Assembly (NCBI GenBank): GCA_964465945.1
Contig: CAYXMM010000011.1
Span: forward strand, 16,702-80,701
DNA: 64,000 bases
Direction: 5' to 3'
Origin: an uncultured Hyphomicrobiales bacterium
GTDB taxonomy: Bacteria; Bacteroidota; Ignavibacteria; Kapaibacteriales; UBA2268
Under the pieces are notes generated by a model. The model searched no databases. It saw only the letters and a program-made list of their open reading frames with translations, and had not been told where the DNA came from. Of this stretch, positions 1 to 38,650 are shown piece after piece. The stretch's first letter is position 1. Each line of letters starts with the position of its first letter. The position numbers were made by a program, and so were the translations under genes.

Positions 1-698
1 TGAAAGTTTTGTCGGAGTTTACATCTCCACATACTACGATAACGCAGTTTTCTGGTCTATAAAATCTTTTGTAGAATTCTTTGCTATATTCGTATTGGTT
101 TGGCATATCTTTGATGTCTGCTTCGTAGCCGATGGTTGTATGTCCGTAAGTGTGGACTTTGAAGGCAGTGGCAACTAATTCGGTGATTAGGTTTTCGATT
201 GGAATGGTAAGATTTTTTCTATACTCACCATAAACGGCACCTGACTCTGTTTGAAAATCGGGTTTTAAGTATGATAAATGTTGAAATCTTTCGCTTTCGA
301 TGTCGATGACTCTTTCTAAGTCTTCGGCAGCAATGTTTAGGTGGTAGCAGGTGTAATCGTCGGTTGTATAAGCGTTTGCATCTGCACCTAATGAGACTAC
401 GATAGAATCATAAACAGTTTTTGGGTATTTTTTTGTTCCACGAAACATCATGTGTTCGAAGAAGTGTGCGAAGCCGGTTTTGCCTTCTTCGACTTCGTCA
501 ACGGAGCCGGTCCTGACTATTGTGTAATAGCTTGCTAAGCCCTCGGATGCTATTGGAATTACATAAACTTTCAGCCCGTTATCGAGCGTTTTTACCTTAT
601 AATCGTAAGGAAAGATTTTTCCTTCTTTTGACGATAAGGGTAAATTAATTGCAGTCATAAGAAATATCGCTCCTACAATTTGTAGATAAAATTTCAAC
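1..698 (-). CDS. M16-family zinc peptidase (insulinase-like), N-terminal part; the gene runs off the window start
   Basis: The reverse-strand translation begins MLKFYLQIVGAIFLMTAINLPL, which is a signal peptide. It contains the inverted zinc motif HFFEHMMFRGT (HxxEH) typical of M16 peptidases. The start codon is at 696-698. Confidence 0.75.
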
Positions 699-974
699 AT
701 ATTTCCCCTAAAATTATTAATTAGTTCATTTGCATATATGAATATTGCGATATTAAGTTTCAATCCGATTCTAAAAAGACATTTACCTTCAAAAAAAAAC
801 GTAAAATTCAATTTTATATCTACAAATTTAAGAATAAAAATTGAGAAATACGAAAAAACCCATAAACCTGTAGGGAACGGTTTCAAACCGTTCCATACAT
901 CATCAAGCGAATCCAAAATAAACAAAATGAATAGCCACCTGCTTTAGCTGGTGGAATAAATAAATCAGAAAAAC

Positions 975-1275
975 CCTAATCACCCACACGTCATTCTGAG
1001 GCACAGCCGAAGAATCCAGTAAAACAAACCCGAATTTATAAAAATAGTAGGGAACGCAAATTTGCGTTCCTAAACTCCTACAAAGTTAAATATCAATAGC
1101 CCCGAGTTTCAACTCGGGGAAAAGAAACCAATCCCACCCGTCATTCTGAGGCGACCCGTATTGAGCGAAGCCGAAATAAGCCGAAGAATCCAGTAAAACA
1201 AACCCGAATTTGCGTCAGCAAATTCTCCAAAAAAAACTCCAACGAAGTTCAACATCAATAGCAAACAAAAAACAC
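975..1275. repeat. Composite intergenic repeat block 1. It holds two copies of the core CCCGTCATTCTGAGGCGAAGCCGAAGAATCCAGTAAAACAAACCCGAATTT plus three hairpin modules.
   Basis: The core occurs at about 983-1040 and 1133-1210; the second copy carries a 28-bp insertion. A perfect 20-bp palindrome GGAACGCAAATTTGCGTTCC lies at 1051-1070. A hairpin CCCCGAGTTtcaaCTCGGGG lies at 1100-1119. A hairpin GAATTTGCgtcaGCAAATTC lies at 1205-1224. The same modules recur at 1911-2230 and, degenerate and inverted, at 38420-38650. Confidence 0.8.
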
Positions 1276-1362
1276 CCTTTTCTGCAAAAACACACAATAA
1301 TTTGTAATATTAAAATAAAAAAATATTTAAAACGTAAGTAAAGGAAAAAATTGGAATAAAAA

Positions 1363-1590
1363 ATGGAAATGAAAAATATAAACTTAGAGCAAAAGAAAAT
1401 CAACATAATAGAAAACATATTAAAGATTGACAATTCTGAAATAATAAACGAATTGCAGTTTATGTTGAATCATACTTCAAAGCAATTCACAATAGAAGAA
1501 TATAAAAATGAAATATTAGAAGCAGAGGACGACATAAAAAACAACAGACTAATATCAAACGAAGATTTAAAAGTGAAATTAGGATTATGA
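1363..1590 (+). CDS. Putative antitoxin, resembling the 'addiction module component' family that pairs with RelE/ParE toxins in Bacteroidota
   Basis: The protein is 75 aa. Its stop overlaps the downstream toxin start in an ATGA arrangement. The pattern KINIIENILKIDNSEIINELQFML followed by EEYKNEILEAEDDIKNNRLISNEDL matches the small helical antitoxins found upstream of ParE/RelE genes. This recognition is from memory and was not searched. Confidence 0.5.
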   Translation: MEMKNINLEQKKINIIENILKIDNSEIINELQFMLNHTSKQFTIEEYKNEILEAEDDIKNNRLISNEDLKVKLGL

Positions 1591-1889
1591 AATTAAACAT
1601 TTTTTGGACTAAGAAAGCAGAAAATGATATTTCATCAATAATACAATATTACAATAGTTTAGAAATGTATTCCATTGCAAAAAACATTTCGAAAAATCTT
1701 TTTAAAACCATAGAAGTAATTTCAGAATATCCAAACTTAGGAAAAATAGATAAAATATTAGGTAACAATTATAAATATACTTTATCATCTGGAATTTATA
1801 AAATCGTATATAAAGTAAATAAAAACAATTTAATTATTTTAAAAATATTTGATGCAAGAAGAAATCCAAATCAAATTTTAGAAGATTAA
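1587..1889 (+). CDS. ParE/RelE-family type II toxin
   Basis: The protein is 100 aa. The N-terminal segment IFWTKKAENDISSIIQYY and the C-terminal segment YKIVYKVNKNNLIILKIFDARRNP follow the ParE pattern (W..A..DL..I..YI ... YRIIYRV....V.ILRI.H.RR). It is translationally coupled to the upstream small ORF. Confidence 0.6.
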   Translation: MKLNIFWTKKAENDISSIIQYYNSLEMYSIAKNISKNLFKTIEVISEYPNLGKIDKILGNNYKYTLSSGIYKIVYKVNKNNLIILKIFDARRNPNQILED

Positions 1890-1910
1890 TACTATACCAT
1901 CATTAAGAGC

Positions 1911-2230
1911 AATCCACCCCGTCATTCTGAGGCGAAGCCGAAGAATCTCCCAAATACACACCCGTCATTCTGAGGCGAAGCCGAAGAACCCAGTAAAACA
2001 AACCCGAATTTGCGTCAGCAAATTCTCATTTATAAAAATAGTAGGGAACGCAAATTTGCCTTCCTAAACTCCAGCGGAGTTCAACATCAATAGCCCCGAG
2101 TTTCAACTCGGGGAAAAGAAACCAACCCCCCTCCCCGTCATTCTGAGGCAACCTGTATTGAGCGAAGCCGAAATAAGCCGAAGAATCTCCCAAACACCTG
2201 CAAAGTCATTATGACCGAAGGAAAGAATCT
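1911..2230. repeat. Composite intergenic repeat block 2, of the same family as 975-1275
   Basis: Core copies lie at 1917-1950, 1961-2010 and 2135-2195, with a degenerate copy at 2205-2230. The hairpin GAATTTGCgtcaGCAAATTC is at 2003-2022. The near-palindrome GGAACGCAAATTTGCCTTCC is at 2045-2064. The CCCCGAGTTTCAACTCGGGG hairpin is at 2094-2113. Confidence 0.8.
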
Positions 2231-2349
2231 CTTCATTTATTAAAATAATAAATCGTATAATTCCTTTGATACCTCAAATATAATAATTAGTTTTGCATAA
2301 GTTAAATTAAAAATGAAATAAATTTGTTAAATTTAAATTTATTTAAATA

Positions 2350-2805
2350 ATGGAAAGCAAAACCAATATCTTTGAAAAAATAAGTTTATTACTTCCAGGT
2401 TATAAGGGTTATAATGAAAGGGATAATAAAAGAAATTCTGATAAAATATTAAGAGATTATATATTTATTGAAATTTCGAAATTGATCAAAGAAATTCTAT
2501 TTAATGTTGATGATAATTATTTGGGTGATGACATTAATAAAATTAATTTTATAATAAAAAAATTAAAAAAAATTCAAGATAATATTAGATTTACTGAATA
2601 TGGACATTCATCACTTTTTAGTCAGTATAAAATTGAATTAAAAGATTTAGAAAAAATTTATAACGTTGATTTCAAAATGCTTGAAAAAGTCAAGTTACTA
2701 GAAACATTTTTAATTGAAAAAGATTTTATGAATATTGAAACAACAATAAAAGATTTAGAGGATATGCTTAAGGATAGATATATACTACTTAAAGGGAATA
2801 TTTAA
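2350..2805 (+). CDS. Hypothetical protein, predicted all-helical; first gene of the 4-gene operon
   Basis: This is a 151-aa ORF that is Lys/Glu/Ile-rich with no recognisable motif. Its stop overlaps the start of the next gene at 2805. Confidence 0.5.
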   Translation: MESKTNIFEKISLLLPGYKGYNERDNKRNSDKILRDYIFIEISKLIKEILFNVDDNYLGDDINKINFIIKKLKKIQDNIRFTEYGHSSLFSQYKIELKDLEKIYNVDFKMLEKVKLLETFLIEKDFMNIETTIKDLEDMLKDRYILLKGNI

Positions 2806-3785
2806 TGCCAGAATTAATGGAATTGATTGAATTTTTAGATGAAAATGGGGATACTATAGTAAAAAGGATTCCTGAAAAAGGTAGTGGTGAATTTAAATTT
2901 GGTTCTCAACTAATAGTTCGAGAAAGTCAAAATGCTATCTTCTTTCGAGATGGAAAATGTTTAGATGTGTTTCCACCAGGAAGACATGTTCTAAGAACTC
3001 AGAATTTACCTTTAATAACAAAATTTGTAACTTCATTAGGATATGGTGAGAATAGTCCTTTTAAATCTGAAGTTTATTTTATTAATTTAAAATTATTTAG
3101 AAATTTAAAATGGGGTACAAAGGAACCAATATTATTTAGAGATGATGAATTTAAAATGGTTAGATTAAGAGGCTTTGGACTATTTTCTATTACAATAATT
3201 GAACCTACATTGTTTTTAAATAAAATAGTTGGAACTCAAAATACTTTTAAAGAATCAGATATTCTTGGTTATTTAAAATCAATAGTTATTCACAAATTAC
3301 AGATTGTTTTATCAAAGTCTTTTAAAGCTGTATTAGATTTACCAAGTAATCTTGATAAAATAAGTTTATTATTAAAAAAAGAAGTATTACTTGATTTTGA
3401 CTCACTTGGAATTGAGTTAAATGATTTTAATATTATATCATTATCGCTTCCTCCTGAAGTCCAAAAAATTATAGATACAAAAACTGGTATGACTGCAGTT
3501 GGTAATTTAGATGATTTTATGAAATTTCAATTAGGAAAATCTATTTTAAATTTATCTGAAAATAAAAGCGATAGTTTTGAAAATAGTTTTGCTTCTGGTT
3601 CAGGTATTGGAATGGGGATGCTAATACCTAACTTTTTAAATCAATCAGTTAAAAATAATACAGAAGACAAAGAAGAAGATATATATAGTAAATTAACTAA
3701 ATTGAAAGAGTTATTCGATAAAGGTATTATAAATGAAGAAGAATATACAAATAGTAAAAGAAAAATTTTAGATAATATAAAATAA
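2805..3785 (+). CDS. SPFH/Band-7-like (Band_7_1 family) protein with a C-terminal SHOCT domain and no transmembrane segment
   Basis: The N-terminal block EFLDENGDTIVKRIPEKGSGEFKFGSQLIVRESQNAIFFRDGK...PGRH.L.T.NLPLITK...SPFKSEVYFINLK matches the TM-less SPFH family that includes B. subtilis YdjI-like proteins; this is from memory. The C-terminal KLKELFDKGIINEEEYTNSKRKIL is a SHOCT motif. Confidence 0.65.
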   Translation: MPELMELIEFLDENGDTIVKRIPEKGSGEFKFGSQLIVRESQNAIFFRDGKCLDVFPPGRHVLRTQNLPLITKFVTSLGYGENSPFKSEVYFINLKLFRNLKWGTKEPILFRDDEFKMVRLRGFGLFSITIIEPTLFLNKIVGTQNTFKESDILGYLKSIVIHKLQIVLSKSFKAVLDLPSNLDKISLLLKKEVLLDFDSLGIELNDFNIISLSLPPEVQKIIDTKTGMTAVGNLDDFMKFQLGKSILNLSENKSDSFENSFASGSGIGMGMLIPNFLNQSVKNNTEDKEEDIYSKLTKLKELFDKGIINEEEYTNSKRKILDNIK

Positions 3786-3799
3786 ATAAACGAATTTAT

Positions 3800-4930
3800 A
3801 TGAATTGTCCAAATTGTGGTAGTGAAATCGAAGATGAAATCTATACTAAATCAATAGAATGCGAATATTGTGGTTCTACCATTAATTTTAACGATATAGA
3901 TTTAGATTCAGAAAAAATTAAATTCCAAAAAAATATAAATGAAATCTCAAGTTTAATTAATTTGGATAATATTAAACTAGCTACAAAAAAATTAAATTTA
4001 ATGTTTGAATCTTATTCGGATAATTACAAAGTTTGGGAATTATGTGGAAGATTTGAATTTATTAAGATTATAAATAAACTTAATAAAACTCCTAAGGATA
4101 ATAATGGTAGAGATGACAGCGTCCTTAAAATTGATATAATAAAGTCTTTTGAAAAGTCATTTAGTAAATCTCTTGAATTAGTTAATGAGAATAATAAAAT
4201 TGAAATAATAAATTCGTTAGATAATTGTCTTAATGATTGCACAGATGCTCTTATAAAATCAAAAGATATTATGTTTTATTATGGATTAACTGAAAATCAA
4301 TATTATGCAGATAGGAGGCTAGAACATTGGTATATTTTGATTGAACAATTAATTGAACTTAAATATTTAATATCACAATATTTCAATTCTATTGACTTTG
4401 TTAGAAGTGTTAAAATACTAATAAAAAAATATTGTTTTAGAAATTTTATAGATGGTATATATATCCATAATTACGTAATAGTAGATAAATTAGATAGATA
4501 TGGACATCGTGATAGGAATGAAGCAATTGAATTTTTTTGGTTTGTTCCTTTAAATGATAAATATTTAAAATGGTACAAAAACTTATATAATGAATATAAA
4601 ATTGAATTAGAAGAAGAAGAAAATCAAAAATTTAATATGAAAAGTGAAGCATCGCTATCTAGTAATGAAAGTAAATGTTTTATTGTAACTGCAACTCTGG
4701 ATAATCCAAATCACTTAATAATTAAGGAGTTGCAGTTTTTTAGGGATGAAATATTATTAAAAAATAACATTGGAGTATTTGCAATTAGATTATATTACAA
4801 ATTTGGTCCAATTATGGCAAATTTTATTTCTAAATCTGAATTGCTGAAGTTTTTATCATTACACATAATTGTATTACCAATTCATAAAATCGTGAAAATT
4901 ATATTTAAGAGGCTTTATAATGGATACTAA
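3800..4930 (+). CDS. Double zinc-ribbon protein with a central helical region and a conserved hydrophobic C-terminal anchor-like module
   Basis: The N terminus reads CPNCGSEIEDEIYTKSIECEYCGS, two CxxC pairs. The C terminus reads CFIVTATLDNPNHLIIKELQFFRDEILLKNNIGVFAIRLYYKFGPIMANFI followed by the hydrophobic stretch LKFLSLHIIVLPIHKIVKIIF. I recall this CF[IV]xTA...FRD...YY..P motif as a recurrent C-terminal module, but cannot name the family with certainty. Confidence 0.55.
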   Translation: MNCPNCGSEIEDEIYTKSIECEYCGSTINFNDIDLDSEKIKFQKNINEISSLINLDNIKLATKKLNLMFESYSDNYKVWELCGRFEFIKIINKLNKTPKDNNGRDDSVLKIDIIKSFEKSFSKSLELVNENNKIEIINSLDNCLNDCTDALIKSKDIMFYYGLTENQYYADRRLEHWYILIEQLIELKYLISQYFNSIDFVRSVKILIKKYCFRNFIDGIYIHNYVIVDKLDRYGHRDRNEAIEFFWFVPLNDKYLKWYKNLYNEYKIELEEEENQKFNMKSEASLSSNESKCFIVTATLDNPNHLIIKELQFFRDEILLKNNIGVFAIRLYYKFGPIMANFISKSELLKFLSLHIIVLPIHKIVKIIFKRLYNGY

Positions 4931-6089
4931 ATTAATTAGAACATTTCACCCAGTAGGTCAAGGTGCATTTTATACTGAAGAATTTTATAATATTGAAGAA
5001 AAAATATTTACTAGAATTGCATACGATTGTGGTGGTTCAAATAAACCATTAATGAAAAATTATATTGAAAATCAAAGCGGGTTTGAAAAGGATTTACAAT
5101 TTGATGCAGGTTTTATTTCACATCTTGACAGAGATCATATTAATGGTTTAGAATATTTATTACGTCATTGTAAAGTAAAAAAAATATTTTTACCATTGTT
5201 AACCCCAAATGAAAAAATATATTTATTCTCAAAATATCAATCTGACATTGAAGAGAATGAAGAAGAAAAAGAAAATGACATTAATTTTCTAAACAATTTA
5301 TTTTTTGATAATTCAATTGAGGAAACCAGAATTTATCGTATAGGTAAATCAGAAACCCCACCAGAGACTGAAGATGAAAATTATATTGATATTTCAGGGG
5401 AGATTAATCAAAATGATCATAATGAAACAGTTTTAAAAAATAAACAAATCAAATTAAATAAAAATTGGGTATTTTCACCATATAATCTTAATACAGAAAT
5501 TTATATTTTAAAATTTATTACAGAAATAAAAAAAGTATTTCCCGATTTAACTGATGAGAAAATTAAAGATATAATTAAAAATAAAAAGGATTTAGCAGAA
5601 CTAAAAAAAATCTATAGAAATATTTTTAATGATGACTTAAATTTGTCTAATATGATTGTTTATAGTGGATATGATTATAATTCAAGAAATAGAAAAGAAT
5701 ATTATCATCACTGTAGATATGTTATTCATAATAATTTTAGATTTTATTGTGATTGTCATCCAAAATATTGTTGTTGTGCTAATTGTATGTATTTCGGTGA
5801 TTTTAAATCAAAAAATAAATCAAATTGGGATCAATTTGAAAATTATTATAAAAAATATTGGGATAATGTTGGTATGGTTCAAATTCCTCATCATGGTTCG
5901 TGGATTGATTACAATGAAGAAATAAATAAAAATCCAAAATTATCAGTGATTTGTTCAAATCCAGAACACAAAAAATATAAACACCCTCATAAAGAAACAT
6001 TAATATCAATTTTAGAAAATAGTGGTATTCCATTTTTGGTAACAAAAGAAATTAAAACTTTAAAAATATTTGAATATCATTTAAGATAA
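4920..6089 (+). CDS. Metallo-beta-lactamase-fold hydrolase of the ComEC/Rec2 type, a predicted nuclease-like enzyme, carrying a Cys/His-rich zinc-knuckle insert
   Basis: The variant motif-2 GFISHLDRDHINGL reads HxDxDH. The later segment VQIPHHGSWIDYN carries the PHHGS signature of ComEC-type MBL domains. A cluster HHCRYVIHNNFRFYCDCHPKYCCCANCMY is present. The start overlaps the stop of the previous gene. Confidence 0.6.
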   Translation: MDTKLIRTFHPVGQGAFYTEEFYNIEEKIFTRIAYDCGGSNKPLMKNYIENQSGFEKDLQFDAGFISHLDRDHINGLEYLLRHCKVKKIFLPLLTPNEKIYLFSKYQSDIEENEEEKENDINFLNNLFFDNSIEETRIYRIGKSETPPETEDENYIDISGEINQNDHNETVLKNKQIKLNKNWVFSPYNLNTEIYILKFITEIKKVFPDLTDEKIKDIIKNKKDLAELKKIYRNIFNDDLNLSNMIVYSGYDYNSRNRKEYYHHCRYVIHNNFRFYCDCHPKYCCCANCMYFGDFKSKNKSNWDQFENYYKKYWDNVGMVQIPHHGSWIDYNEEINKNPKLSVICSNPEHKKYKHPHKETLISILENSGIPFLVTKEIKTLKIFEYHLR

Positions 6090-6240
6090 AAAATATGTTT
6101 AGTTCATTTTGGAATTTACCACTCGAAACGGTGCAATTAAAGGAAAAACTCAACTCAATTAGTTGAAAGGTTATGTAGGAAATTTTGGTGATCTAGTAAA
6201 AATTTACTACTTAAGTGTTAATGACTTAACAAAATTTGGT

Positions 6241-6306
6241 AATCCTGCTTGACTTTTAAAGTGGTCAAATTCAGCCACTTTAAAATCAGGATTATTTGTT
6301 TTTCAC
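6241..6306. terminator. Bidirectional rho-independent terminator between the convergent MBL gene and kdsA
   Basis: The sequence AATCCTGcttgACTTTTAAAGTGG-tcaaattcag-CCACTTTAAAAtCAGGATT forms a long inverted repeat and is followed by a T-rich tract. Confidence 0.6.
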
Positions 6307-6319
6307 TAATTTAATTTCA

Positions 6320-7084
6320 TTATTCATTCACCCCATCCACTTTCAAAACAGTAGCGATAAAGTTCTCCACTTCATCAAGTTTGATTTGTGTGGCGGCGTC
6401 GCTTTTTGCATTTTTTGGGTCGGGGTGGGTTTCAAGAAATATTCCATCAATTCCGATGGCTGTTGCTGCTTTTGCAAGTCCTAAGGCAAATTCTCTTTGT
6501 CCCCCGCTTACTTCGCTTATGCTTGGTTGTTGAACTGAGTGTGTTGCATCATAAACGACAGGGTATCCACTTTGTTTCATTATCATTAGGTTTCGCATAT
6601 CTACGACAAGGTCTCCATAACCGAAGAATGTTCCTCTTTCGCATAACCAGATATTTTTGTTGCCTGTTGAAGCAACTTTTTCTGCTGCTTTTAGCATATC
6701 TTTACCTGCCATAAATTGTCCTTTTTTGATATTAACAATTTTACCTGTTTCGCCTGAAGCGATTAGAAGTTCTGTTTGTCTTGCTAAGAATGCGGGGATT
6801 TGGAGTACATCAACATAATTGGATGCAAGGTGGATTTCTTCGACTGTGTGGACGTCAGTTAAGCATTCTAAGTTGTGTTTTTTAGCGGTTTCGCTTAGGT
6901 ATTGTAGAGCAAGTTCGTCTCCAATTCCTGTGAATGAGTTTAAACTTGTTCTGTTTGCTTTTTTATACGATGCTTTTAGGTATAATTTAAAATTATACTT
7001 TTTTGAAAGTTCGCTTAGTTTTTCTGCGACTTCTTCTATGAGTTCTTTTGATTCTAAGAGGCATGGTCCCGCGATTATAAACAT
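6320..7084 (-). CDS. kdsA: 3-deoxy-8-phosphooctulonate (KDO-8-P) synthase
   Basis: The 254-aa protein begins MFIIAGPCLLES and matches KdsA along its full length. Confidence 0.9.
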   Translation of the reverse strand: MFIIAGPCLLESKELIEEVAEKLSELSKKYNFKLYLKASYKKANRTSLNSFTGIGDELALQYLSETAKKHNLECLTDVHTVEEIHLASNYVDVLQIPAFLARQTELLIASGETGKIVNIKKGQFMAGKDMLKAAEKVASTGNKNIWLCERGTFFGYGDLVVDMRNLMIMKQSGYPVVYDATHSVQQPSISEVSGGQREFALGLAKAATAIGIDGIFLETHPDPKNAKSDAATQIKLDEVENFIATVLKVDGVNE

Positions 7085-7155
7085 ACATTTCTTTTGATAA
7101 TATAAAAACCAAAATTACGAAATTTTATATTTTTGAGGTAGATTAGATTTAAACT

Positions 7156-7788
7156 TTATTTATTTAGAATGATTAATCTGTTTTCGATAGAAAAAGAAGT
7201 AAAGTTAAAGAGGTTGGAAATTTTCTGGAATGTTTCGTTTTGATAGAAGAAAACATGTGTGGGGTCGTTTTTGTAATACCATTTATCAAAAATAATTTCG
7301 GAAGTGTATAGGTCAGTCATTATAAGTAATTTTCCATTGTCATTTAACATATTGTATAATAGTTGAAATTCTTTTTTTGGGTTGTGAAAATGTTCTATTA
7401 CTTCGCAACAAGCGATGAAGTCATACTTTTTGTTTAATAATTCATAGTTTGGGTGGAAAAATGGGTCATATTGTTGAATTTTAAAGTTATTATCTTGTAG
7501 TATTTTTGAAATGACTGGACCAGTTCCTGCTCCAAAGTCGAGACCATTACTTGTGGATGAAAATGAATCTAATATAGAATCGGTGATTGGACTTACAAAT
7601 TTTTTATAATCTGCATCATTAACATTGTTATTATGACGTTGGTAATGTTGTATTTCTAAGTCGGGTTTTAGGAAAAATTTTTCATCTAGGCTAATTCCTT
7701 TGCAGTTTCTACAAATATAGAATATTTTAGATTTAGAATAGAATAAGTCTATTCTTCCTTCGCATAATGTGCATTTCTTGCTATTCAC
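7156..7788 (-). CDS. Class I SAM-dependent methyltransferase with an N-terminal Cys4 zinc finger
   Basis: It carries the SAM-binding motif GLDFGAGTG and N-terminal CxxC...CxxC pairs. Confidence 0.6.
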   Translation of the reverse strand: MNSKKCTLCEGRIDLFYSKSKIFYICRNCKGISLDEKFFLKPDLEIQHYQRHNNNVNDADYKKFVSPITDSILDSFSSTSNGLDFGAGTGPVISKILQDNNFKIQQYDPFFHPNYELLNKKYDFIACCEVIEHFHNPKKEFQLLYNMLNDNGKLLIMTDLYTSEIIFDKWYYKNDPTHVFFYQNETFQKISNLFNFTSFSIENRLIILNK

Positions 7789-7890
7789 CTTTTTGGAAAT
7801 CCGTAATTTGTTAATTAATTAAATGCAAAATACAAAAAAAATAGGATTTTTTCAATAATTTTGTATATATAAATTAATAAGGAAAGTAAA

Positions 7891-8361
7891 GTGGTAGGTA
7901 TTGGGTATGATATGCATAGATTGGAGAAGGGTGAAACTCTTTTTCTTGGTGGTTTGAAGTTTGAGACTGATTATGGTACGGTTGCTCATAGTGATGGTGA
8001 TGTTTTAATTCATTCGGTGATTGATGCGATTTTAGGTGCGATGGGAAAGGGTGATATAGGGGATTATTTTTCAGACACGGATCCAAAATGGAAAGATGTT
8101 GATTCAACTTTTTTGTTGAAAGAAATTGTTAAAATCGTAAAGGATGAAAGTTTAAGGATAGTTAATATTGATTTGACTATTATAACTGAGAAGCCAAAAA
8201 TTAGTCCGTTTAAATCAAAATTGAAGAGTAATATGGCTATATTGTGTGGAATAGATGAGAATCGGATAAATATTAAGGCGACAACAAATGAGAAACGGGG
8301 GTTTATTGGACGAGAGGAAGGGATTGTTGTTTTGTCAATTTGCCAGATTGAGAAGGTTTAG
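7891..8361 (+). CDS. ispF: 2-C-methyl-D-erythritol 2,4-cyclodiphosphate synthase
   Basis: It uses a GTG start. The segments GIGYDMHRL and HSDGDVLIHSVIDAILGA are conserved metal- and substrate-binding regions of IspF. Confidence 0.85.
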   Translation: MVGIGYDMHRLEKGETLFLGGLKFETDYGTVAHSDGDVLIHSVIDAILGAMGKGDIGDYFSDTDPKWKDVDSTFLLKEIVKIVKDESLRIVNIDLTIITEKPKISPFKSKLKSNMAILCGIDENRINIKATTNEKRGFIGREEGIVVLSICQIEKV

Positions 8362-10337
8362 TCTTCATCTTTGATAAGTGTAGATTTGTTAAAAATTAAT
8401 TTTGCACGAGTTCCAGTTTTTCCATCGCTTTCATAATGTAATTTGCCGTTATGTGCGTGCATAAAATCTTTACAAATGACGACTCCGTAGCCGAAAGAGT
8501 TTTCTTCAACTCTTTCGAAGCTTAGGATTGAGTTATAGCTTGTACTTTCTAATGCATCGATTTGTTCTTTTTTCATTCCTATACCTTCGTCTTCAATTAC
8601 GATTATATAGTTGCTTTCAGTAAGGTATGAATATAATGTAATTTTTTTATGTGAATCTGAATATTTAGAAGCATTAGAAATTAAGTTTCTGAGTATTGTG
8701 CTCATAAGATTAGAATCAGCAGAAATTATATGATTTCTATTGATATTATTGATTAATATTTGGTTTTTGTTGTCTAATTGTAAGTGTAGGTATTCGTAAA
8801 TATTTTGGACTAAATTGAATATTCTAAATTCTGTAGGATTAAATTGATAAAGGTTGTGTTGGCTGATTTTCATCCAGTTTAGAATATCTTTTAATAAGTC
8901 ATAGGTGTTAATTGAAGCTCGGCTTAATTCTAAAATGATTTCATATTTTTCTGATTCGTCCATTGTGTAGAATTCATTTTTCAATAGGTCTAGTAATTGA
9001 GAAGAGGAATTGATAGGGTTAATTAGATCGTGAGAGAGTAAAGAAATTAGTTTGTTTTTATTATTTACTTCAATTTCTAATTCTTTTAGTGTGTTAATTT
9101 TGTCTTTTATTAATATTTGTTGATTTTTAACGGCATCTTTTAATTTTACGTTATAGTATATATAGAAGACAATGAATGCGGTTATCAGGATTGTAAGGGT
9201 GATTAGTATTGTGTTTAAAAATTGATAGTCTTGATTTTTTTTCTGTGATGCCTCTAATTTGCTTGAGGTCTTGTATAAACGAGTTATCATATTGATTTTT
9301 TCGATTTGAATTTTGTTTACTGAGTCTATGTGGTATTTGTAATTTTCAAATTCTTTTAGTTTAAGAGTGTCATTGGTGATTTTATATAAGTTTTCTAAAA
9401 ATTCTATGTTTCGAGTAATTATGGAATATGTTTTTGTTCTTTCTAACGAGTCTTTCATTGCTTCAAGGTAATAATATGCGGAGTCATATTGTTGGTGTTC
9501 CATAAACATTCTGCCTAAGTTATTTAAGGCAGAATAGTAATTTACTCTGTTGTTATCGTTTATTCTTGATTTTACAACAAGCCGTGAGTAATATATTGCA
9601 CTGTCTAAATCATTTTTTAAATAATAATAGTAAGCGAGAATGTTATAATAGATTGATTCATAATTGTAATTATTAAAATATTCTTTTACATGATATGTTT
9701 GAATTTTTATATCTATTGAATCCATTTGTAATAATGTAAAGTAAATATTAATGTATTTTTGAAATGAGTTTGCATATAATAGGGTTATGTTTAGTTGTTT
9801 AGATAATTCAATTGCTTTTAAGCTTACTATTTTAGCAGAGTCCATATCATTTTTCATTCTTAAAAAATCTGATAGACCATTTAGTGCTGTTACGTATTCT
9901 TCACTTGGCATTGATAGTCCTTTTAAATTTAGAACATATCTAAAATATTGCTCTGATAGGTCATACATTTGGTAATCTGCGTATACTGAGGCAATGTCGT
10001 TCAAGTAAATTGCTTTTGTGTTAGCTGAATATGTTCTTATTTTAAAAAGAAGATTGTTTAGAGTTCTTTTAGATAATTGAATTTCACCATAGTTAAGGGC
10101 GTATCGCCATTTATAAAATAGGTAATCTAGTCTGAGGATTGAATTTGTGTCGTTTTTAGAAAGTTGTTCTATTTCTTTTAGATAATTATAACTTGCGTCT
10201 TTATCGGAATATAGGTTTTGCATAAATGAAGAAGCAAATCTATCAAAACTCTCTCTTTTCCCTTCTCTTACTTTATTTTGAGAGAAAGAAAAGTGAATGA
10301 AAATAAAAAATATAATTATTTGTAAAATATATTTCAT
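8358..10337 (-). CDS. Sensor histidine kinase with a periplasmic TPR-like domain
   Basis: It has a signal peptide, one transmembrane segment, the H-box LSHDLINPIN and a C-terminal HATPase_c region reading GIGM...GYGVVICKDF. Confidence 0.75.
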   Translation of the reverse strand: MKYILQIIIFFIFIHFSFSQNKVREGKRESFDRFASSFMQNLYSDKDASYNYLKEIEQLSKNDTNSILRLDYLFYKWRYALNYGEIQLSKRTLNNLLFKIRTYSANTKAIYLNDIASVYADYQMYDLSEQYFRYVLNLKGLSMPSEEYVTALNGLSDFLRMKNDMDSAKIVSLKAIELSKQLNITLLYANSFQKYINIYFTLLQMDSIDIKIQTYHVKEYFNNYNYESIYYNILAYYYYLKNDLDSAIYYSRLVVKSRINDNNRVNYYSALNNLGRMFMEHQQYDSAYYYLEAMKDSLERTKTYSIITRNIEFLENLYKITNDTLKLKEFENYKYHIDSVNKIQIEKINMITRLYKTSSKLEASQKKNQDYQFLNTILITLTILITAFIVFYIYYNVKLKDAVKNQQILIKDKINTLKELEIEVNNKNKLISLLSHDLINPINSSSQLLDLLKNEFYTMDESEKYEIILELSRASINTYDLLKDILNWMKISQHNLYQFNPTEFRIFNLVQNIYEYLHLQLDNKNQILINNINRNHIISADSNLMSTILRNLISNASKYSDSHKKITLYSYLTESNYIIVIEDEGIGMKKEQIDALESTSYNSILSFERVEENSFGYGVVICKDFMHAHNGKLHYESDGKTGTRAKLIFNKSTLIKDED

Positions 10338-24342: not shown

Positions 24343-24654
24343 ATGTTAAGACAAGGTGATGTTGTTGATCATAGTAGTGAATTAGTTAAGGAATTAGCTA
24401 TGAAGTTAATTAATTCTGATTTTCGTGAAAAGACAACACATCAATTAGCAAAGTATATAAACAGACTAAAATTTAGTGTAGAATCTACGCAATATCATCA
24501 TTATAATTGTGTTAGATTAGTAAAACTAATTAATCAAGAAATTAGTGAGTATTATTTTGAGAAATATGGCGACCCTGAAAGAGCAATGAATCATGAGTGT
24601 CTAATATATATTAAGTTATTAAATACATTAGTTAATAAATATCATAATGTGTAA
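24343..24654 (+). CDS. Hypothetical protein, coupled to the downstream nuclease gene
   Basis: It is 103 aa and overlaps the next gene by 1 nt. Confidence 0.4.
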   Translation: MLRQGDVVDHSSELVKELAMKLINSDFREKTTHQLAKYINRLKFSVESTQYHHYNCVRLVKLINQEISEYYFEKYGDPERAMNHECLIYIKLLNTLVNKYHNV

Positions 24655-27600
24655 TGAAGTATTTAATACATAGTAAGTTAGTTGAAGAATTAAGCCAATA
24701 TTATAATGAAAAGAATATTGAAGAAATTCTGATAAGCCAAGAAAAACAACATTCAAAAAACAAGACTATAATTGTTTATCCTACTACAAGACTTAAAACA
24801 TATCAAGAAAAAGAATTTATAAATAAACTTTGGGAAAATTCTAAAACTCCTTATTCACGTGATATATTCTTTAATTTTAGTGGTTTTTTATCTCATATTA
24901 AGCATTTAACTAATTTTAAAGAAGATAAAAGTTTAATAAAAGAAGATGAATTTTATGCGATAATGAAGCTTGTTTATGATGAAGTTGAGTTATCATATTT
25001 TGCGAAGGAAAATGAAAAGCCACGAAGGAAAATAAATAATTTGCTTTCAAGTGTTATATTTGGTTTCTTAAAAAAGGGTGTTAGTTTAACAGATTTAGAG
25101 TCAAAATTAAATGATAACTCAACAAATAGTGATAGACTTCAAGATATTATATTGATTTATAAAACATTTTTAGAAAAGACAAGTAACTATACTAATGAAA
25201 CTAAGCAAATTTATGATTTTAATGAATTTATTATTAACAACAATGTTGATTTTTCACAATTAACTAACGACATTTTTTACTTTGAGCATTTTAAGGAGTT
25301 TAATAGAAATGAAATTGAGTTGCTAAACACTTTGTTTAAACACAATTTAAAATTAATTATTAATTTTAAATATTTGAGTAAAAATAATCCGAGTGGTAAT
25401 ATTTTTGGAATTGGATATATTTTGTCTGATTGTTGTACTATAACTGAATTGAATAATGAGAGTGAAGTTTATAATAATATATCAACGCAATTGTTTTCTA
25501 ATAATTATGATGATAATAATGTTAAAAGTGATACTCATAGTAAAATAAATATTGTAGAGTTAGAGAATGATAAAAGAGAAATTAAGTATATTACTACTCT
25601 TGTTAAAAAATTAATAGTTGAAGATAATATTCTCCCAAAAGATATATTAATTTTAGCGCGAAATCCAAAAGGATATTCAAAATTACTAAAAAATGAATTT
25701 GATAAGAATAGTATACCTTTAAATGTCAGTGATAGACCAGCATTAAAAGAGTCTTCGATTATTGATTTAATTATTAATTATTTAAAATTAATTGATGCTA
25801 ATTTTAAATTATTAAATTTAGAAAAGGTAATTAAATCACCTTTTTTAGTTTATGATAGAGATAAGATTAATATTAATAAATTTATTAGTATTACTAAAAA
25901 ATATAGAAGTTTTTATGGTAATTATAATGAAAGACAAGATTATTTTAATAAAATATTAAATAATAATAATAATAATGAAGAAATTAGAGGTTATATTTCT
26001 CAATTAGAGTATATATTTGATTTTTTACATATAATAAATATAAAGAGTTCGTTTAGTAAGGCTGATTTTCTTGGTTTGGTTACAAGTTTTGTTAATTTAT
26101 TAAAATTAGATAATTTGAATAATATTATTAGTAGTGAAGGTGCAAGTTTTAATGATTTTTTAGTAACTCGTGAGAAAGAGAGGATATATAGTGCTATTGA
26201 CGCTTTGCTTGTTTCTATTGAGAGTGTTTATGATGTTAATTATAAAATTAATAATAAATTGGAATTGAGACTTAGTGAAATAATTGAAGAGCTTGATTTT
26301 ATTAAAGAGAAAAATAGATTTCAAATTAGAGAGTTATTTGATACTTCAGTTACGTTCACTTCAGTGGAACAGGCACGTGGTGTTGATAGGAAAGTAACAA
26401 TAATATGCGGGTTATTAGAAGGGGAATTTCCACTTCATTATAAAACAGATGAGGTTTTAGGAATTGATTTAACAAGTTCTGAGAATAAGCATATTGCGTT
26501 AGAGGAAGAATTATTTTTTGAAGCGATTTTTGTGAATGAAGCTTTGCCGGAACATCTTTATTTGACTTATTATAATAAAAAGGGAGTAAAAGATGTCATT
26601 CCTTCTCATTTTATGAATGAATTAAAGCGAGTTTTAAATAATAATTCTATTAATTTAATAAATATAGAAGAATCAGGTAATTTTATTAATAAATATAGTT
26701 TAATTAAGATTATTAATAAATTAAATAATATTGATTCTTTATTAGATAATTCTATAATTAATGGTTATTTAAGTGAATTAACTCAAACAAATAAATATAG
26801 AATAATAGGATATAAGCGTAATACTTTTTCGGCTTCACGTTTGGATAATTTTTATCATTTTCCATATTATTTTCTTTATAATAGTATTTTTAATATGAAG
26901 GAATTGGATAGTTATGAAGAAGAGCCAATGATAAAAGAAGTGGGGACTATTAATCACGAGATTTTATTTGAATTGTATACATTATTAAGTAATAATTCAA
27001 ATCTTAATAATTTGTCTCCATTTTATTTGCAATCTGTAAATGATAATTATAATAATATTTATCCTATAAGTTTTTTTAATTTTGATGTGGAATTTATTAA
27101 AAGTCAATTAGACAAAATTATTAATAATGTGTTTAATAAATTTCCACAAAATGAGTTTTTTAGTTTACAGAAGTACATTTCAAAGAAAATAATTTTAAAG
27201 ATATTAAATAACGAAATTAATTTAAAAAAATCAACTGATGGATTTGCTTTTCCAAGTGCTTTTGAGTTCAAATTTGGCTATAATAATGATAATTTTACAA
27301 TTCAGAATACTCACAGTCAAACGATTAATTTTAAAGGTAATATTGATAGGGTTGATTTAGATTTTGATGGTAGTAATTTATTATTAAGCGTTGTAGATTA
27401 CAAGTCAAGTGATAAAGATATTAAATATAGCTCTAGTTTTATTAAAGATGAATATAGCTTTCAGATGTTTTTATATCTTAAAGCAATGAAATCTGTTTTG
27501 ATTAATAATTTTAAATTGATAAAAGATGGGGTTGAATATATATTAAATGAAGATAATGTTATTTATAATTATGCTGCGTATTATAATATAAATAAAATAA

Positions 27601-27788
27601 GTTTAAACTATTATTTAAATAGAAGTAAACTTAAAGAGAAAGATGACCCTAATACTATAATTAGTTCAAAATTTGATGAAATGGAAAGTGAAATATTTAA
27701 TGTCTTTACCAAATTCGATAGTTTGGATTTAGCGCATTTGAATAAGGTTAATAAATACTCACCACAAACAAGTTTATTAATTAGATGA
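24654..27788 (+). CDS. PD-(D/E)XK nuclease family protein, AddB/RexB-like, with a degenerate helicase-like N-terminal region
   Basis: The C-terminal RecB-type nuclease motifs GNIDRVDLDFDGSNLLLSVVDYKSS are present. There is no Walker A motif and no adjacent AddA/UvrD partner. Confidence 0.65.
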   Translation: MKYLIHSKLVEELSQYYNEKNIEEILISQEKQHSKNKTIIVYPTTRLKTYQEKEFINKLWENSKTPYSRDIFFNFSGFLSHIKHLTNFKEDKSLIKEDEFYAIMKLVYDEVELSYFAKENEKPRRKINNLLSSVIFGFLKKGVSLTDLESKLNDNSTNSDRLQDIILIYKTFLEKTSNYTNETKQIYDFNEFIINNNVDFSQLTNDIFYFEHFKEFNRNEIELLNTLFKHNLKLIINFKYLSKNNPSGNIFGIGYILSDCCTITELNNESEVYNNISTQLFSNNYDDNNVKSDTHSKINIVELENDKREIKYITTLVKKLIVEDNILPKDILILARNPKGYSKLLKNEFDKNSIPLNVSDRPALKESSIIDLIINYLKLIDANFKLLNLEKVIKSPFLVYDRDKININKFISITKKYRSFYGNYNERQDYFNKILNNNNNNEEIRGYISQLEYIFDFLHIINIKSSFSKADFLGLVTSFVNLLKLDNLNNIISSEGASFNDFLVTREKERIYSAIDALLVSIESVYDVNYKINNKLELRLSEIIEELDFIKEKNRFQIRELFDTSVTFTSVEQARGVDRKVTIICGLLEGEFPLHYKTDEVLGIDLTSSENKHIALEEELFFEAIFVNEALPEHLYLTYYNKKGVKDVIPSHFMNELKRVLNNNSINLINIEESGNFINKYSLIKIINKLNNIDSLLDNSIINGYLSELTQTNKYRIIGYKRNTFSASRLDNFYHFPYYFLYNSIFNMKELDSYEEEPMIKEVGTINHEILFELYTLLSNNSNLNNLSPFYLQSVNDNYNNIYPISFFNFDVEFIKSQLDKIINNVFNKFPQNEFFSLQKYISKKIILKILNNEINLKKSTDGFAFPSAFEFKFGYNNDNFTIQNTHSQTINFKGNIDRVDLDFDGSNLLLSVVDYKSSDKDIKYSSSFIKDEYSFQMFLYLKAMKSVLINNFKLIKDGVEYILNEDNVIYNYAAYYNINKISLNYYLNRSKLKEKDDPNTIISSKFDEMESEIFNVFTKFDSLDLAHLNKVNKYSPQTSLLIR

Positions 27789-38419: not shown

Positions 38420-38650
38420 AATTAGTCATTCTGAGCGAATGCGAAGAATCCAGAATTTTTTAAATTCAATAATATTATCATTAAATAATTGTTTCATTTA
38501 CTAGTAAATGATGAATTTTTTTGCTGGATATTTCGCTGCGCTCAATATGACGGCTTTCTTGGATTTATCTCACCCGTCGCCCTAAAGGGCACTTCCCTCA
38601 ATGAAAGAGAGAATCTGGATTTTTCGCTCCGCTCAGAATGACGTTTATCT
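38420..38650. repeat. Repeat block 3: inverted degenerate copies of the GTCATTCTGAGCGAAGCGAAGAATC core in a MITE-like arrangement
   Basis: A forward copy AGTCATTCTGAGCGAATGCGAAGAATCCAGAATT lies at about 38437-38470. A reverse-complement-type copy GAATCTGGATTTTTCGCTCCGCTCAGAATGACG lies at about 38613-38646. A further degenerate copy GCGCTCAATATGACGG lies between them. The family is the same as at 975-1275 and 1911-2230. Confidence 0.7.

Follow-up and report, generated by a model that had tools for sequence, protein, structure and literature searches.

A conserved SPFH gene cassette followed by a metallo-β-lactamase-type gene in a Kapaibacteriales genome: one system or two?

Do four tightly spaced genes that bring together an SPFH protein, a zinc-ribbon protein and a metallo-β-lactamase (MBL) hydrolase encode a single dedicated system, or has a conserved gene cassette received a passenger at its end? 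The question is raised by a locus in the genome of an uncultured bacterium of the Kapaibacteriales (Ignavibacteria; deposited as an uncultured Hyphomicrobiales bacterium, assembly GCA_964465945.1). The window analysed is a stretch of 64,000 nucleotides of contig CAYXMM010000011.1 (positions 16,702 to 80,701). A first-pass annotation, made from the letters alone, had proposed that the four genes form an undescribed membrane-stress or defence operon. The four co-directional open reading frames (ORFs) are all present where it had placed them:

2350-2805, plus strand: g1, 151 aa, predicted helical protein
2805-3785, plus strand: g2, 326 aa, SPFH protein with a SHOCT domain
3800-4930, plus strand: g3, 376 aa, zinc-ribbon/CFI-box protein
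4920-6089, plus strand: g4, 389 aa, MBL hydrolase

Stops and starts are closely packed, with junction spacings of -1 nt (g1/g2), +14 nt (g2/g3) and -11 nt (g3/g4), the start of g4 lying inside the end of g3. The domain content ascribed to the four products holds for the most part (Band_7_1, SHOCT, a ComEC-like MBL and a helical g1), the exceptions being a double zinc ribbon in g3 and a Cys/His knuckle in g4.

The four genes do not recur as one architecture. Scanning of one genome per species yielded 72 loci with relatives of g2, which are 32-68% identical to g2 over the best aligned segment as reported, and 40-61% in nearly all loci. A g1 homologue lies directly upstream and co-directionally in 63 of them (tblastn), spread over at least 10 phyla (Bacteroidota, Ignavibacteria, Thermodesulfobacteriota, Nitrospirae, Aminicenantes, Acidobacteriota, Clostridia, NC10, Planctomycetota and others). 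The C-terminal part of g3 is detected downstream in eight loci by tblastn, and clustering finds g3-like proteins in about 15 of the 72. No relative of g4 is found by tblastn in any of the 72 loci, and a hidden Markov model (HMM) of the MBL family gives only one other match among the 1,004 neighbourhood ORFs, an 855-aa ComEC-like ORF in locus L040. The survey in the reverse direction covered 137 loci with g4 relatives, 80 from metagenomes and 57 viral or prophage (1.5 Mb). Genes g1, g2 and g3 are absent from all 137, and the g4 family has no conserved neighbour across 134 loci. Lack of co-occurrence outside this genome, fixed beforehand as the observation that speaks against a single unit, is thus what both directions return. 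The four-gene unit is specific to this species, since neither survey shows co-occurrence, and the data lend no support to a four-gene system dedicated to defence. Judged by sequence, the conserved unit is g1 together with the SPFH/SHOCT protein and the predicted zinc-ribbon adaptor, while g4 appears as lineage-specific cargo. Nor does the MBL enzyme take the place of PspA, as had been suggested: the first position of the cassette belongs to g1, in the 63 loci counted above. The copy in the window has the dyad arrangement, with a g1-family gene immediately upstream of g2, co-directional and overlapping it by 1 nt, and it has the adaptor, g3 matching the HMM of the g3-like cluster over its full length (1.7e-29 across aa 2-368). 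As for the ComEC-like ORF of L040, it stands directly 3' of the SPFH gene and is probably a housekeeping competence gene.

We lean, with slightly better than even confidence, towards a composite reading of the locus, in which a widespread three-gene membrane-scaffold cassette carries a stand-alone MBL gene as cargo at its end. Genes g1 to g3 would then be a reduced copy of a cassette whose invariant core is g1 plus an SPFH protein of Band_7_1 type without transmembrane (TM) segment, usually with SHOCT, and in which a zinc-ribbon protein is a frequent third member.

The cassette comes in two flavours. In the core-like flavour the g1-g2 dyad is embedded among GAPDH/PGK/TPI, ExbBD-TonB, SecDF, LptB and diacylglycerol-kinase-like genes and has the composition of its flanks; it is found in genomes of Aminicenantes, Acidobacteriota, Desulfobacterota, Clostridia and NC10 type, and behind it often come further proteins that combine an N-terminal zinc ribbon with C-terminal TM helices (clusters c18, c15, c12 and c27). 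The CFI-type flavour has the order g1, g2, a small 3-TM protein (c8), a TPR protein (c22) and a large adaptor, usually of the zinc-ribbon/CFI-box kind, and occurs in Bacteroidota, Ignavibacteria, some Desulfobacterota and the planctomycete Limihaloglobus sulfuriphilus. Its GC content is below that of the flanks in many loci (0.31 versus 0.375 in L006, 0.32 versus 0.41 in L011, 0.46 versus 0.57 in L013). This AT-richness points to horizontal transfer, and the CFI-type cassette looks mobile in Bacteroidota. The window copy belongs to this mobile flavour in a reduced form: HMMs of c8, c22 and c23 have no match in any frame of the 64 kb, so that the 3-TM and TPR genes are missing. The dyad is confined to the subfamily of g2, in which identity to g2 is about 40% or more, and g1 is absent beside the distant Band_7_1 genes borne by plasmids.

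Two loci show further variations. The isolate L. sulfuriphilus (CP019646, locus L220, 10001-15609) has g1, g2, a 117-aa protein, a TPR protein and, replacing the CFI-box adaptor, a 761-aa protein with faint GYF_2/TerB-like matches, next to which stands an insertion-sequence (rve) transposase. On a plasmid of Vibrio coralliilyticus (NZ_CP048695, L218) a distant Band_7_1 gene (37% identity, without g1) is paired with a gene for a 352-aa hypothetical protein, the pair being divergent from genes for a TIR-domain protein and a TRAFs-binding-domain protein.

In cassettes of Flavobacteriia (L015, L017, L019-L023 and L070) the interval from g2 to the g3-like gene is a variable slot, occupied at spacings of 1-12 nt by small, differing genes (c80, c68, c83 and c39, the last being Cys-rich). 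The c80 product resembles the methyl-directed restriction enzymes Eco15I/NhoI (PADLOC mREase_II 1.5e-5; PDB 8q5m 9.5e-4). The surroundings of the cassettes were compared by scoring 113 ORFs within 6 kb of CFI-type cassettes and an equal number from core-type loci, the counts being of PADLOC models and not of proteins. The CFI-type flanks match 140 models, including PDC-S01, S02, S05 and S22, a retron-type reverse transcriptase and mad3/mad8. The core-type flanks match 55, and all those listed are AbiEi/AbiEii, consistent with a single AbiE pair. This is suggestive only of defence-candidate surroundings for CFI-type cassettes.

In the window itself, the four genes have the appearance of one transcription unit. 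Upstream of g1 stands a candidate promoter:

2265..2326, plus strand: tandem pair of the promoter pattern TTTG-N17-23-TAnnTTTG, a match to the Bacteroidetes-type consensus

The second copy of the pattern ends 24 nt before the ATG of g1. The window holds 18 matches to the pattern versus 7.5 expected, several of them directly 5' of other genes, and a scan of the window finds none inside 2350-6089. By the published Bacteroidetes consensus, the pair at 2265-2326 is the putative sole promoter of the operon. Matches in a sigma-70 promoter scan do not exceed the expectation from shuffled sequence, an Rfam scan of positions 1-8000 has no matches and PHROGs gives nothing useful for g1 to g4. Because the motif is found only 5' of g1, with none internal, and the junctions are tight, g1 to g4 are very probably co-transcribed; g4 is probably also translationally coupled to the cassette.

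The neighbouring features on the upstream side are the following:

969-1262 and 1918-2190: direct repeat blocks, ~250 nt each, with five copies of CGTCATTCTGAGG in total
1363-1590, plus strand: antitoxin-like ORF, a small ORF upstream of ParE
1587-1889, plus strand: ParE toxin (ParE_toxin 1.8e-9, 38.5 bits versus a cut-off of 23)

The toxin-antitoxin pair reported beside the operon is thus confirmed as ParE-type; it is AT-rich like the operon (GC 0.197, GC at third codon positions (GC3) 0.14) and is accessory context outside it. No copy of CGTCATTCTGAGG is expected by chance (0), and one further copy lies near 38631. The repeat blocks had been thought to border the operon; they bracket the ParE pair instead, and no repeat is present 3' of g4. 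In every metagenome contig of this species the sequence stops at 2158, within the second repeat block, which suggests a multi-copy element. The housekeeping genes named as flanks are there, kdsA (DAHP_synth_1) downstream and convergent, and an M16 peptidase gene (HFFEH motif) on the minus strand that runs off the window start; a methyltransferase gene is a further neighbour. In Aegiribacteria/Fermentibacteria loci (L026, L027, L030, L033 and L038) the genes after the dyad are an acyl-CoA-ligase-like one and kdsA. This adjacency and that in the window, where kdsA is convergent, may be a coincidence or an old linkage with lipopolysaccharide/envelope genes.

Genes g1 to g4 and the ParE pair have GC 0.20-0.25 and GC3 0.10-0.15 against a mean GC of 0.306 (sd 0.043) for the genes of the window, whose GC3 is mostly 0.2-0.3. 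The AT-richer segment described from the letters is therefore a genuine compositional outlier. The only other one in the window is 24343-27788 (GC 0.22, GC3 0.15), with a 103-aa ORF and a 1,044-aa protein that combines a UvrD-like helicase region (PADLOC GajB 1.9e-10) with a PD-(D/E)XK nuclease domain (PDDEXK_1 1.1e-12), which may likewise have been acquired as a gene of defence type.

These data bear on the view that the ParE pair and g1 to g4 are unrelated accessory genes, weakly expressed, on an island acquired by horizontal transfer, and that their spacing reflects genome compaction. The whole block from 1363 to 6089 is the compositional outlier, assemblies break in its upstream repeats, and the MBL family and a toxin-antitoxin pair are typical island cargo. 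However, the order and spacing of g1, g2 and g3 are conserved across many genomes, so that these three, at least, are truly an operon; no promoter-like motif lies inside 2350-6089, and strains of the species that are 2.4% apart overall keep the block with 0-1 differences. We give this view little credence. No island-free variant was found by strain comparison, every contig of the species carrying the block. Strain divergence is concentrated elsewhere, in a TPR/histidine-kinase gene at 8358-10337 (10.2% difference versus <1.5% in every neighbouring gene), which is a local hypervariable or recombined gene.

The same organisation can be taken in the opposite sense, with the four genes as one system. 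A complex of the SPFH, zinc-ribbon and g1 proteins would act as a sensor of membrane perturbation (such as phage entry or lysis-from-within) and would release or activate the MBL nuclease as an abortive-infection effector, the whole being a platform with exchangeable effectors. Tight coupling behind a single promoter, the atypical composition common to g1-g4 and the ParE pair, the Flavobacteriia slot with its differing small genes and Eco15I/NhoI-like c80, and the signature of horizontal transfer in CFI-type cassettes would all fit. So would the defence-candidate models (PDC-S01, S02, S05, S22, retron-type reverse transcriptase, mad3/mad8) matched in CFI-type flanks, where the control flanks have one AbiE pair only, although that comparison is small, counts models and draws mostly on unvalidated candidate models. 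From the literature, MBL domains are recurrent defence effectors (bioRxiv 10.1101/2025.09.30.679545), and in Bacillus subtilis phage SPP1 induces the pspA-ydjGHI operon, while a CBASS cyclase is conjugated to PspA and co-purifies with YdjI (PMC11153139). Against this stand the surveys, in which MBL and cassette come together in no second lineage (0/72 and 0/137) and in all other settings the MBL family evidently has no need of g1-g3. In many phyla, moreover, the dyad lies among housekeeping genes and is host-like in composition, and no PADLOC model matches g1, g2 or g3. We consider a four-gene system unlikely. A broader proposition is that the mobile CFI-box cassette is an immune platform that senses membrane integrity and bears exchangeable effectors, armed with the MBL in the window and with an Eco15I/NhoI-like nuclease or other small proteins in Flavobacteriia, the conserved g1-SPFH dyad of other phyla being its housekeeping ancestor. 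This, too, we hold to be unlikely.

The composite reading implies that g4 belongs to a family with a life of its own, and this is what its relatives display. The protein itself has no Pfam match. It has 871 homologues, hundreds of them at 30-38% identity over 96-100% of the query, most with matches to Lactamase_B and PF23023. Candidate metal ligands are H68, D72, H73, D294, H324/H325 (in PHHGS) and H355 (in HPH), all invariant or nearly so in an alignment of 26 sequences. The ligands are therefore retained on closer alignment, except that the second His is an Asp: g4 reads HLDRDH where the family consensus is HLHxDH, a His-to-Asp change common to 5 of the 25 aligned homologues. All the family motifs are found in g4 (HxHxDH-type, the Asp of 'GD', PHHGS and GHP), and the nearly complete ligand set suggests that the enzyme is catalytically competent. 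Compared with solved structures, the family profile matches best the MBL domains of ComEC (9ic4 7.6e-8; 30bt 5.7e-7), followed by RNase Z and Apyc1; RNase J and CPSF-73 are also among its relatives and g4 hits the NCBIfam model ComEC_Rec2 at 3.3e-7. The assignment of a ComEC-type MBL thus stands, but the zinc knuckle attributed to it finds no support, the Cys/His-rich insertion at aa ~262-290 being a variable, poorly conserved loop in the family. Since its relatives are ComEC, RNase Z, RNase J and CPSF-73, g4 would most simply be a metal-dependent phosphodiesterase acting on nucleic acids, or a nuclease.

Relatives of g4 lie on 57 viral or prophage contigs and recur at one position in a set of related prophage-like contigs, where PHROGs gives nothing useful for the adjoining phage genes. 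There is no relative in 50,697 deposited phage genomes and plasmids yield only four weak partial matches. Two homologues are found beside LmuB_C/CTD7/MC3 genes and near an SduA_C gene, of Lamassu/Shedu type. In one locus (L004, GCA_017998135.1, 2784-7766) the homologue, 36% identical to g4, lies 260 nt 3' of a CTD7 - MC3 - LmuB_C trio, in surroundings of conflict-system type.

The prophage relatives invite another explanation of g4, as a counter-defence or signal-degrading enzyme derived from a prophage or mobile element, an Apyc1-like cyclic-nucleotide phosphodiesterase stranded beside an unrelated cassette. Most homologues have precomputed matches to PF23023 (Anti-Pycsar_Apyc1), and the family profile matches the Apyc1 structures 7u2r (7.5e-5) and 7u2s. 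However, the similarity is limited to the N-terminal ~75 residues (profile positions 11-74 versus 7u2r), the generic HxHxDH region, which makes an Apyc1-like role less likely. The best matches and those of the C-terminal part (PHHGS ... GHP) are to the nuclease-type MBL of ComEC, with the ComEC_Rec2 hit in line; family members are ~370-390 aa long with a Cys-rich insertion, against ~250 aa for Apyc1, and the deposited phage genomes lack any relative. Such an origin and role are in our view quite improbable.

For the cassette proteins, to which the composite reading assigns the membrane-related part, the best defined is g2. Pfam finds Band_7_1 (1.7e-60) and a C-terminal SHOCT (6.7e-9) separated by a low-complexity linker, and the maximum Kyte-Doolittle value over 19 aa is 1.42, so that no stretch is of TM grade; the annotation as a TM-less SPFH protein with SHOCT is accurate. 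Band_7_1 plus SHOCT is the commonest SHOCT architecture (PMC3581485). Viral contigs contain no g2 relative.

The third protein of the cassette, g3, was described as a double zinc-ribbon protein with a hydrophobic C-terminal anchor. The ribbon is single, one CxxC...CxxC at aa 3-26 (Zn_Ribbon_TF 1.1e-5). The C-terminus is hydrophobic, but is formed by a CFI-box domain (NCBIfam CFI_box_CTERM, aa 293-352, 1.2e-13, 50.6 bits versus a cut-off of 40) with a borderline helix at aa 351-369 (Kyte-Doolittle 1.88). The middle region is helical and TPR-like; no PepSY/NTF2 match is found and a single-sequence AlphaFold2 (AF2) model is unusable (pLDDT 38.7). A word-based search for homologues returned only one match, with 20% coverage, and the g3 homologues were recovered from the neighbourhoods of g2 relatives, not by direct sequence search. 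By analogy g3 is a putative membrane-proximal adaptor.

The g1 family has about 1,700 representative clusters (E<=1e-3) and a conserved N-terminal motif, NIFEK..PGYKGY..R..DK.LR, but g1 belongs to no Pfam family. All 23 of the 23 tested members match the NCBIfam model LIMLP_15305_fam, all far below its cut-off; the LIMLP_15305 locus tag is named in a single paper, which gives no function for it (PMC7567364), and none is reported for g1 in the literature searched. The AF2 model (pLDDT 77.7, pTM 0.74) has helices at 33-56, 60-81, 97-122 and 126-149, in agreement with the helical protein foreseen, and a fold search with it returned only generic helical-bundle matches; g1 is thus predicted to be a soluble four-helix protein. 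The absence of a PspA homologue from the locus, already noted in the first-pass annotation, is upheld by a comparison of the g1 family with E. coli PspA (hhalign probability 0.9%). In one protein of the representative library (P0176, 258 aa) a zinc ribbon is fused N-terminally to a g1-family domain, a Rosetta-stone hint that ties g1 to zinc-ribbon partners.

A working model for the cassette can be drawn from B. subtilis. The resemblance to ydjG/ydjI noted in the first-pass annotation is apt: in the pspA-samGHI (ydjGHI) operon the TM-less SPFH protein SamI (YdjI) is brought to the membrane by the zinc-ribbon protein SamG and the TPM protein SamH, and in turn recruits PspA, the complex being a membrane-stress sensor under sigma-W control (PMC8581546; bioRxiv 10.64898/2026.02.06.704340; PMC11237479). 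By analogy, g3 would sit as adaptor at the inner face of the cytoplasmic membrane and recruit soluble g2, which would oligomerise into a sub-membrane scaffold. Gene g1, placed where pspA stands in the Bacillus operon, would code for a dedicated partner or client of g2 and not for a PspA homologue, and the three proteins together would sense or buffer membrane perturbation. The g4 family, in turn, moves among prophages and defence islands without a fixed partner, and in this species one member would have joined the cassette at its 3' end. What the sequences show directly is how the genes are arranged, which domains they encode, how they are conserved, that the two units do not co-occur elsewhere, and how the genes are composed; that proteins are recruited to the membrane, that a scaffold forms, that g4 acts as a nuclease or phosphodiesterase and that the two units interact in function is inferred.

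Several points weigh against this composite picture. All that g3 and SamG have in common is a zinc ribbon and a hydrophobic tail, there is neither a SamH-like TPM protein nor PspA, and g2 ends in SHOCT where SamI has a zinc finger. The 11-nt overlap, the single promoter and the identical AT-rich composition of g4 and g1-g3 are as compatible with a functional unit as with a chance capture. The variable genes tightly embedded in related cassettes, one of them restriction-endonuclease-like, hint that cargo may be functionally integrated. Finally, the cassette in the window has neither c8 nor c22 and so may not work like the full version.

The main interest of the locus lies in the conserved three-gene cassette and in the possible recruitment of nuclease genes by its mobile flavour. 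The dyad isolated here, g1 plus a TM-less Band_7_1/SHOCT protein, is deeply conserved, and the SamGHI principle of a soluble SPFH protein recruited by zinc-ribbon membrane proteins may reach far beyond Firmicutes, independently of PspA. A mobile flavour that picks up nuclease-type genes offers a concrete case in which to ask whether membrane damage is linked to immune effectors through SPFH scaffolds.

The SPFH-SHOCT protein, the ParE pair and the MBL superfamily represent known types; the g1-SPFH dyad and the CFI-box zinc-ribbon adaptor are not described in the literature searched. Comparison with known systems places the parts as follows. The C-terminal MBL nuclease domain of ComEC/Rec2 is the best solved-structure match of g4, and the two have PHHGS, GHP and HxHxDH-type ligands in common, but g4 is a stand-alone soluble protein of 389 aa, without competence channel or OB domains, and has the Cys/His-rich insertion and the H-to-D change in motif 2. 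The MBL effectors of defence systems (Lamassu LmuA, DRT RTasMBL, Avs1a, 6A-MBL and PDC-M48B) are of the same superfamily, with weak partial HMM matches: LmuA, RTasMBL and PDC-M48B of PADLOC are hit partially at 1e-6 to 1e-8, and g4 stays far below the family cut-offs for Avs1a (15.2 bits versus 420) and 6A-MBL (15.1 versus 220). None of their partners (NTPase sensor, LmuB/C, reverse transcriptase) is encoded here. Classical SPFH-NfeD operons (QmcA-YbbJ, HflK/C) also have a two-gene core of an SPFH protein and a dedicated small partner, whereas in our locus the partner is predicted to be soluble and helical, is encoded upstream and is not a membrane NfeD/OB-fold protein, and g2 has no membrane anchor of its own. 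In the Band-7/SHOCT operons, including the polyamine-linked type, Band-7 proteins that end in SHOCT-type domains have been suggested as organisers of sub-membrane complexes (Ravi et al. 2024, PMC11237479). On a Novosphingobium plasmid a distant Band_7_1 relative sits in exactly such a DUF4178/DUF350/polyamine context, but those operons differ from the locus in having neither g1 nor a CFI-box zinc-ribbon protein.

The closest parallel is PspA-SamGHI. Like the locus, it is one operon headed by a gene for a helical protein, and it combines a TM-less SPFH protein, with low-complexity linker and short C-terminal domain, with a zinc-ribbon protein that has a hydrophobic C-terminal anchor; membrane association of the SPFH protein depends on partner proteins there and, by analogy, would do so for g2 and g3. 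It differs from the locus in gene order, and the MBL gene is appended only here. The locus is devoid of PspA/ESCRT-III, its g1 being a four-helix protein of about 150 aa without detectable similarity to PspA, and of TPM SamH, as none of g1-g4 matches TPM_phosphatase and the operon holds no additional ORF. The C-terminal domain is a zinc finger in SamI and SHOCT in g2. SamG has two ribbons, a YpeB/NTF2-like domain and a TM helix, whereas g3 combines a single ribbon with a TPR-like region and a CFI box, which limits their likeness to the overall arrangement, a ribbon followed by a hydrophobic stretch. Of the five testable features that define the Bacillus module, four are lacking here, so that the resemblance is one of analogy and not of orthology. 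Seen in this way, the g1-SPFH dyad with its CFI-box zinc-ribbon adaptor would be a PspA-free variant of the SamGHI theme.

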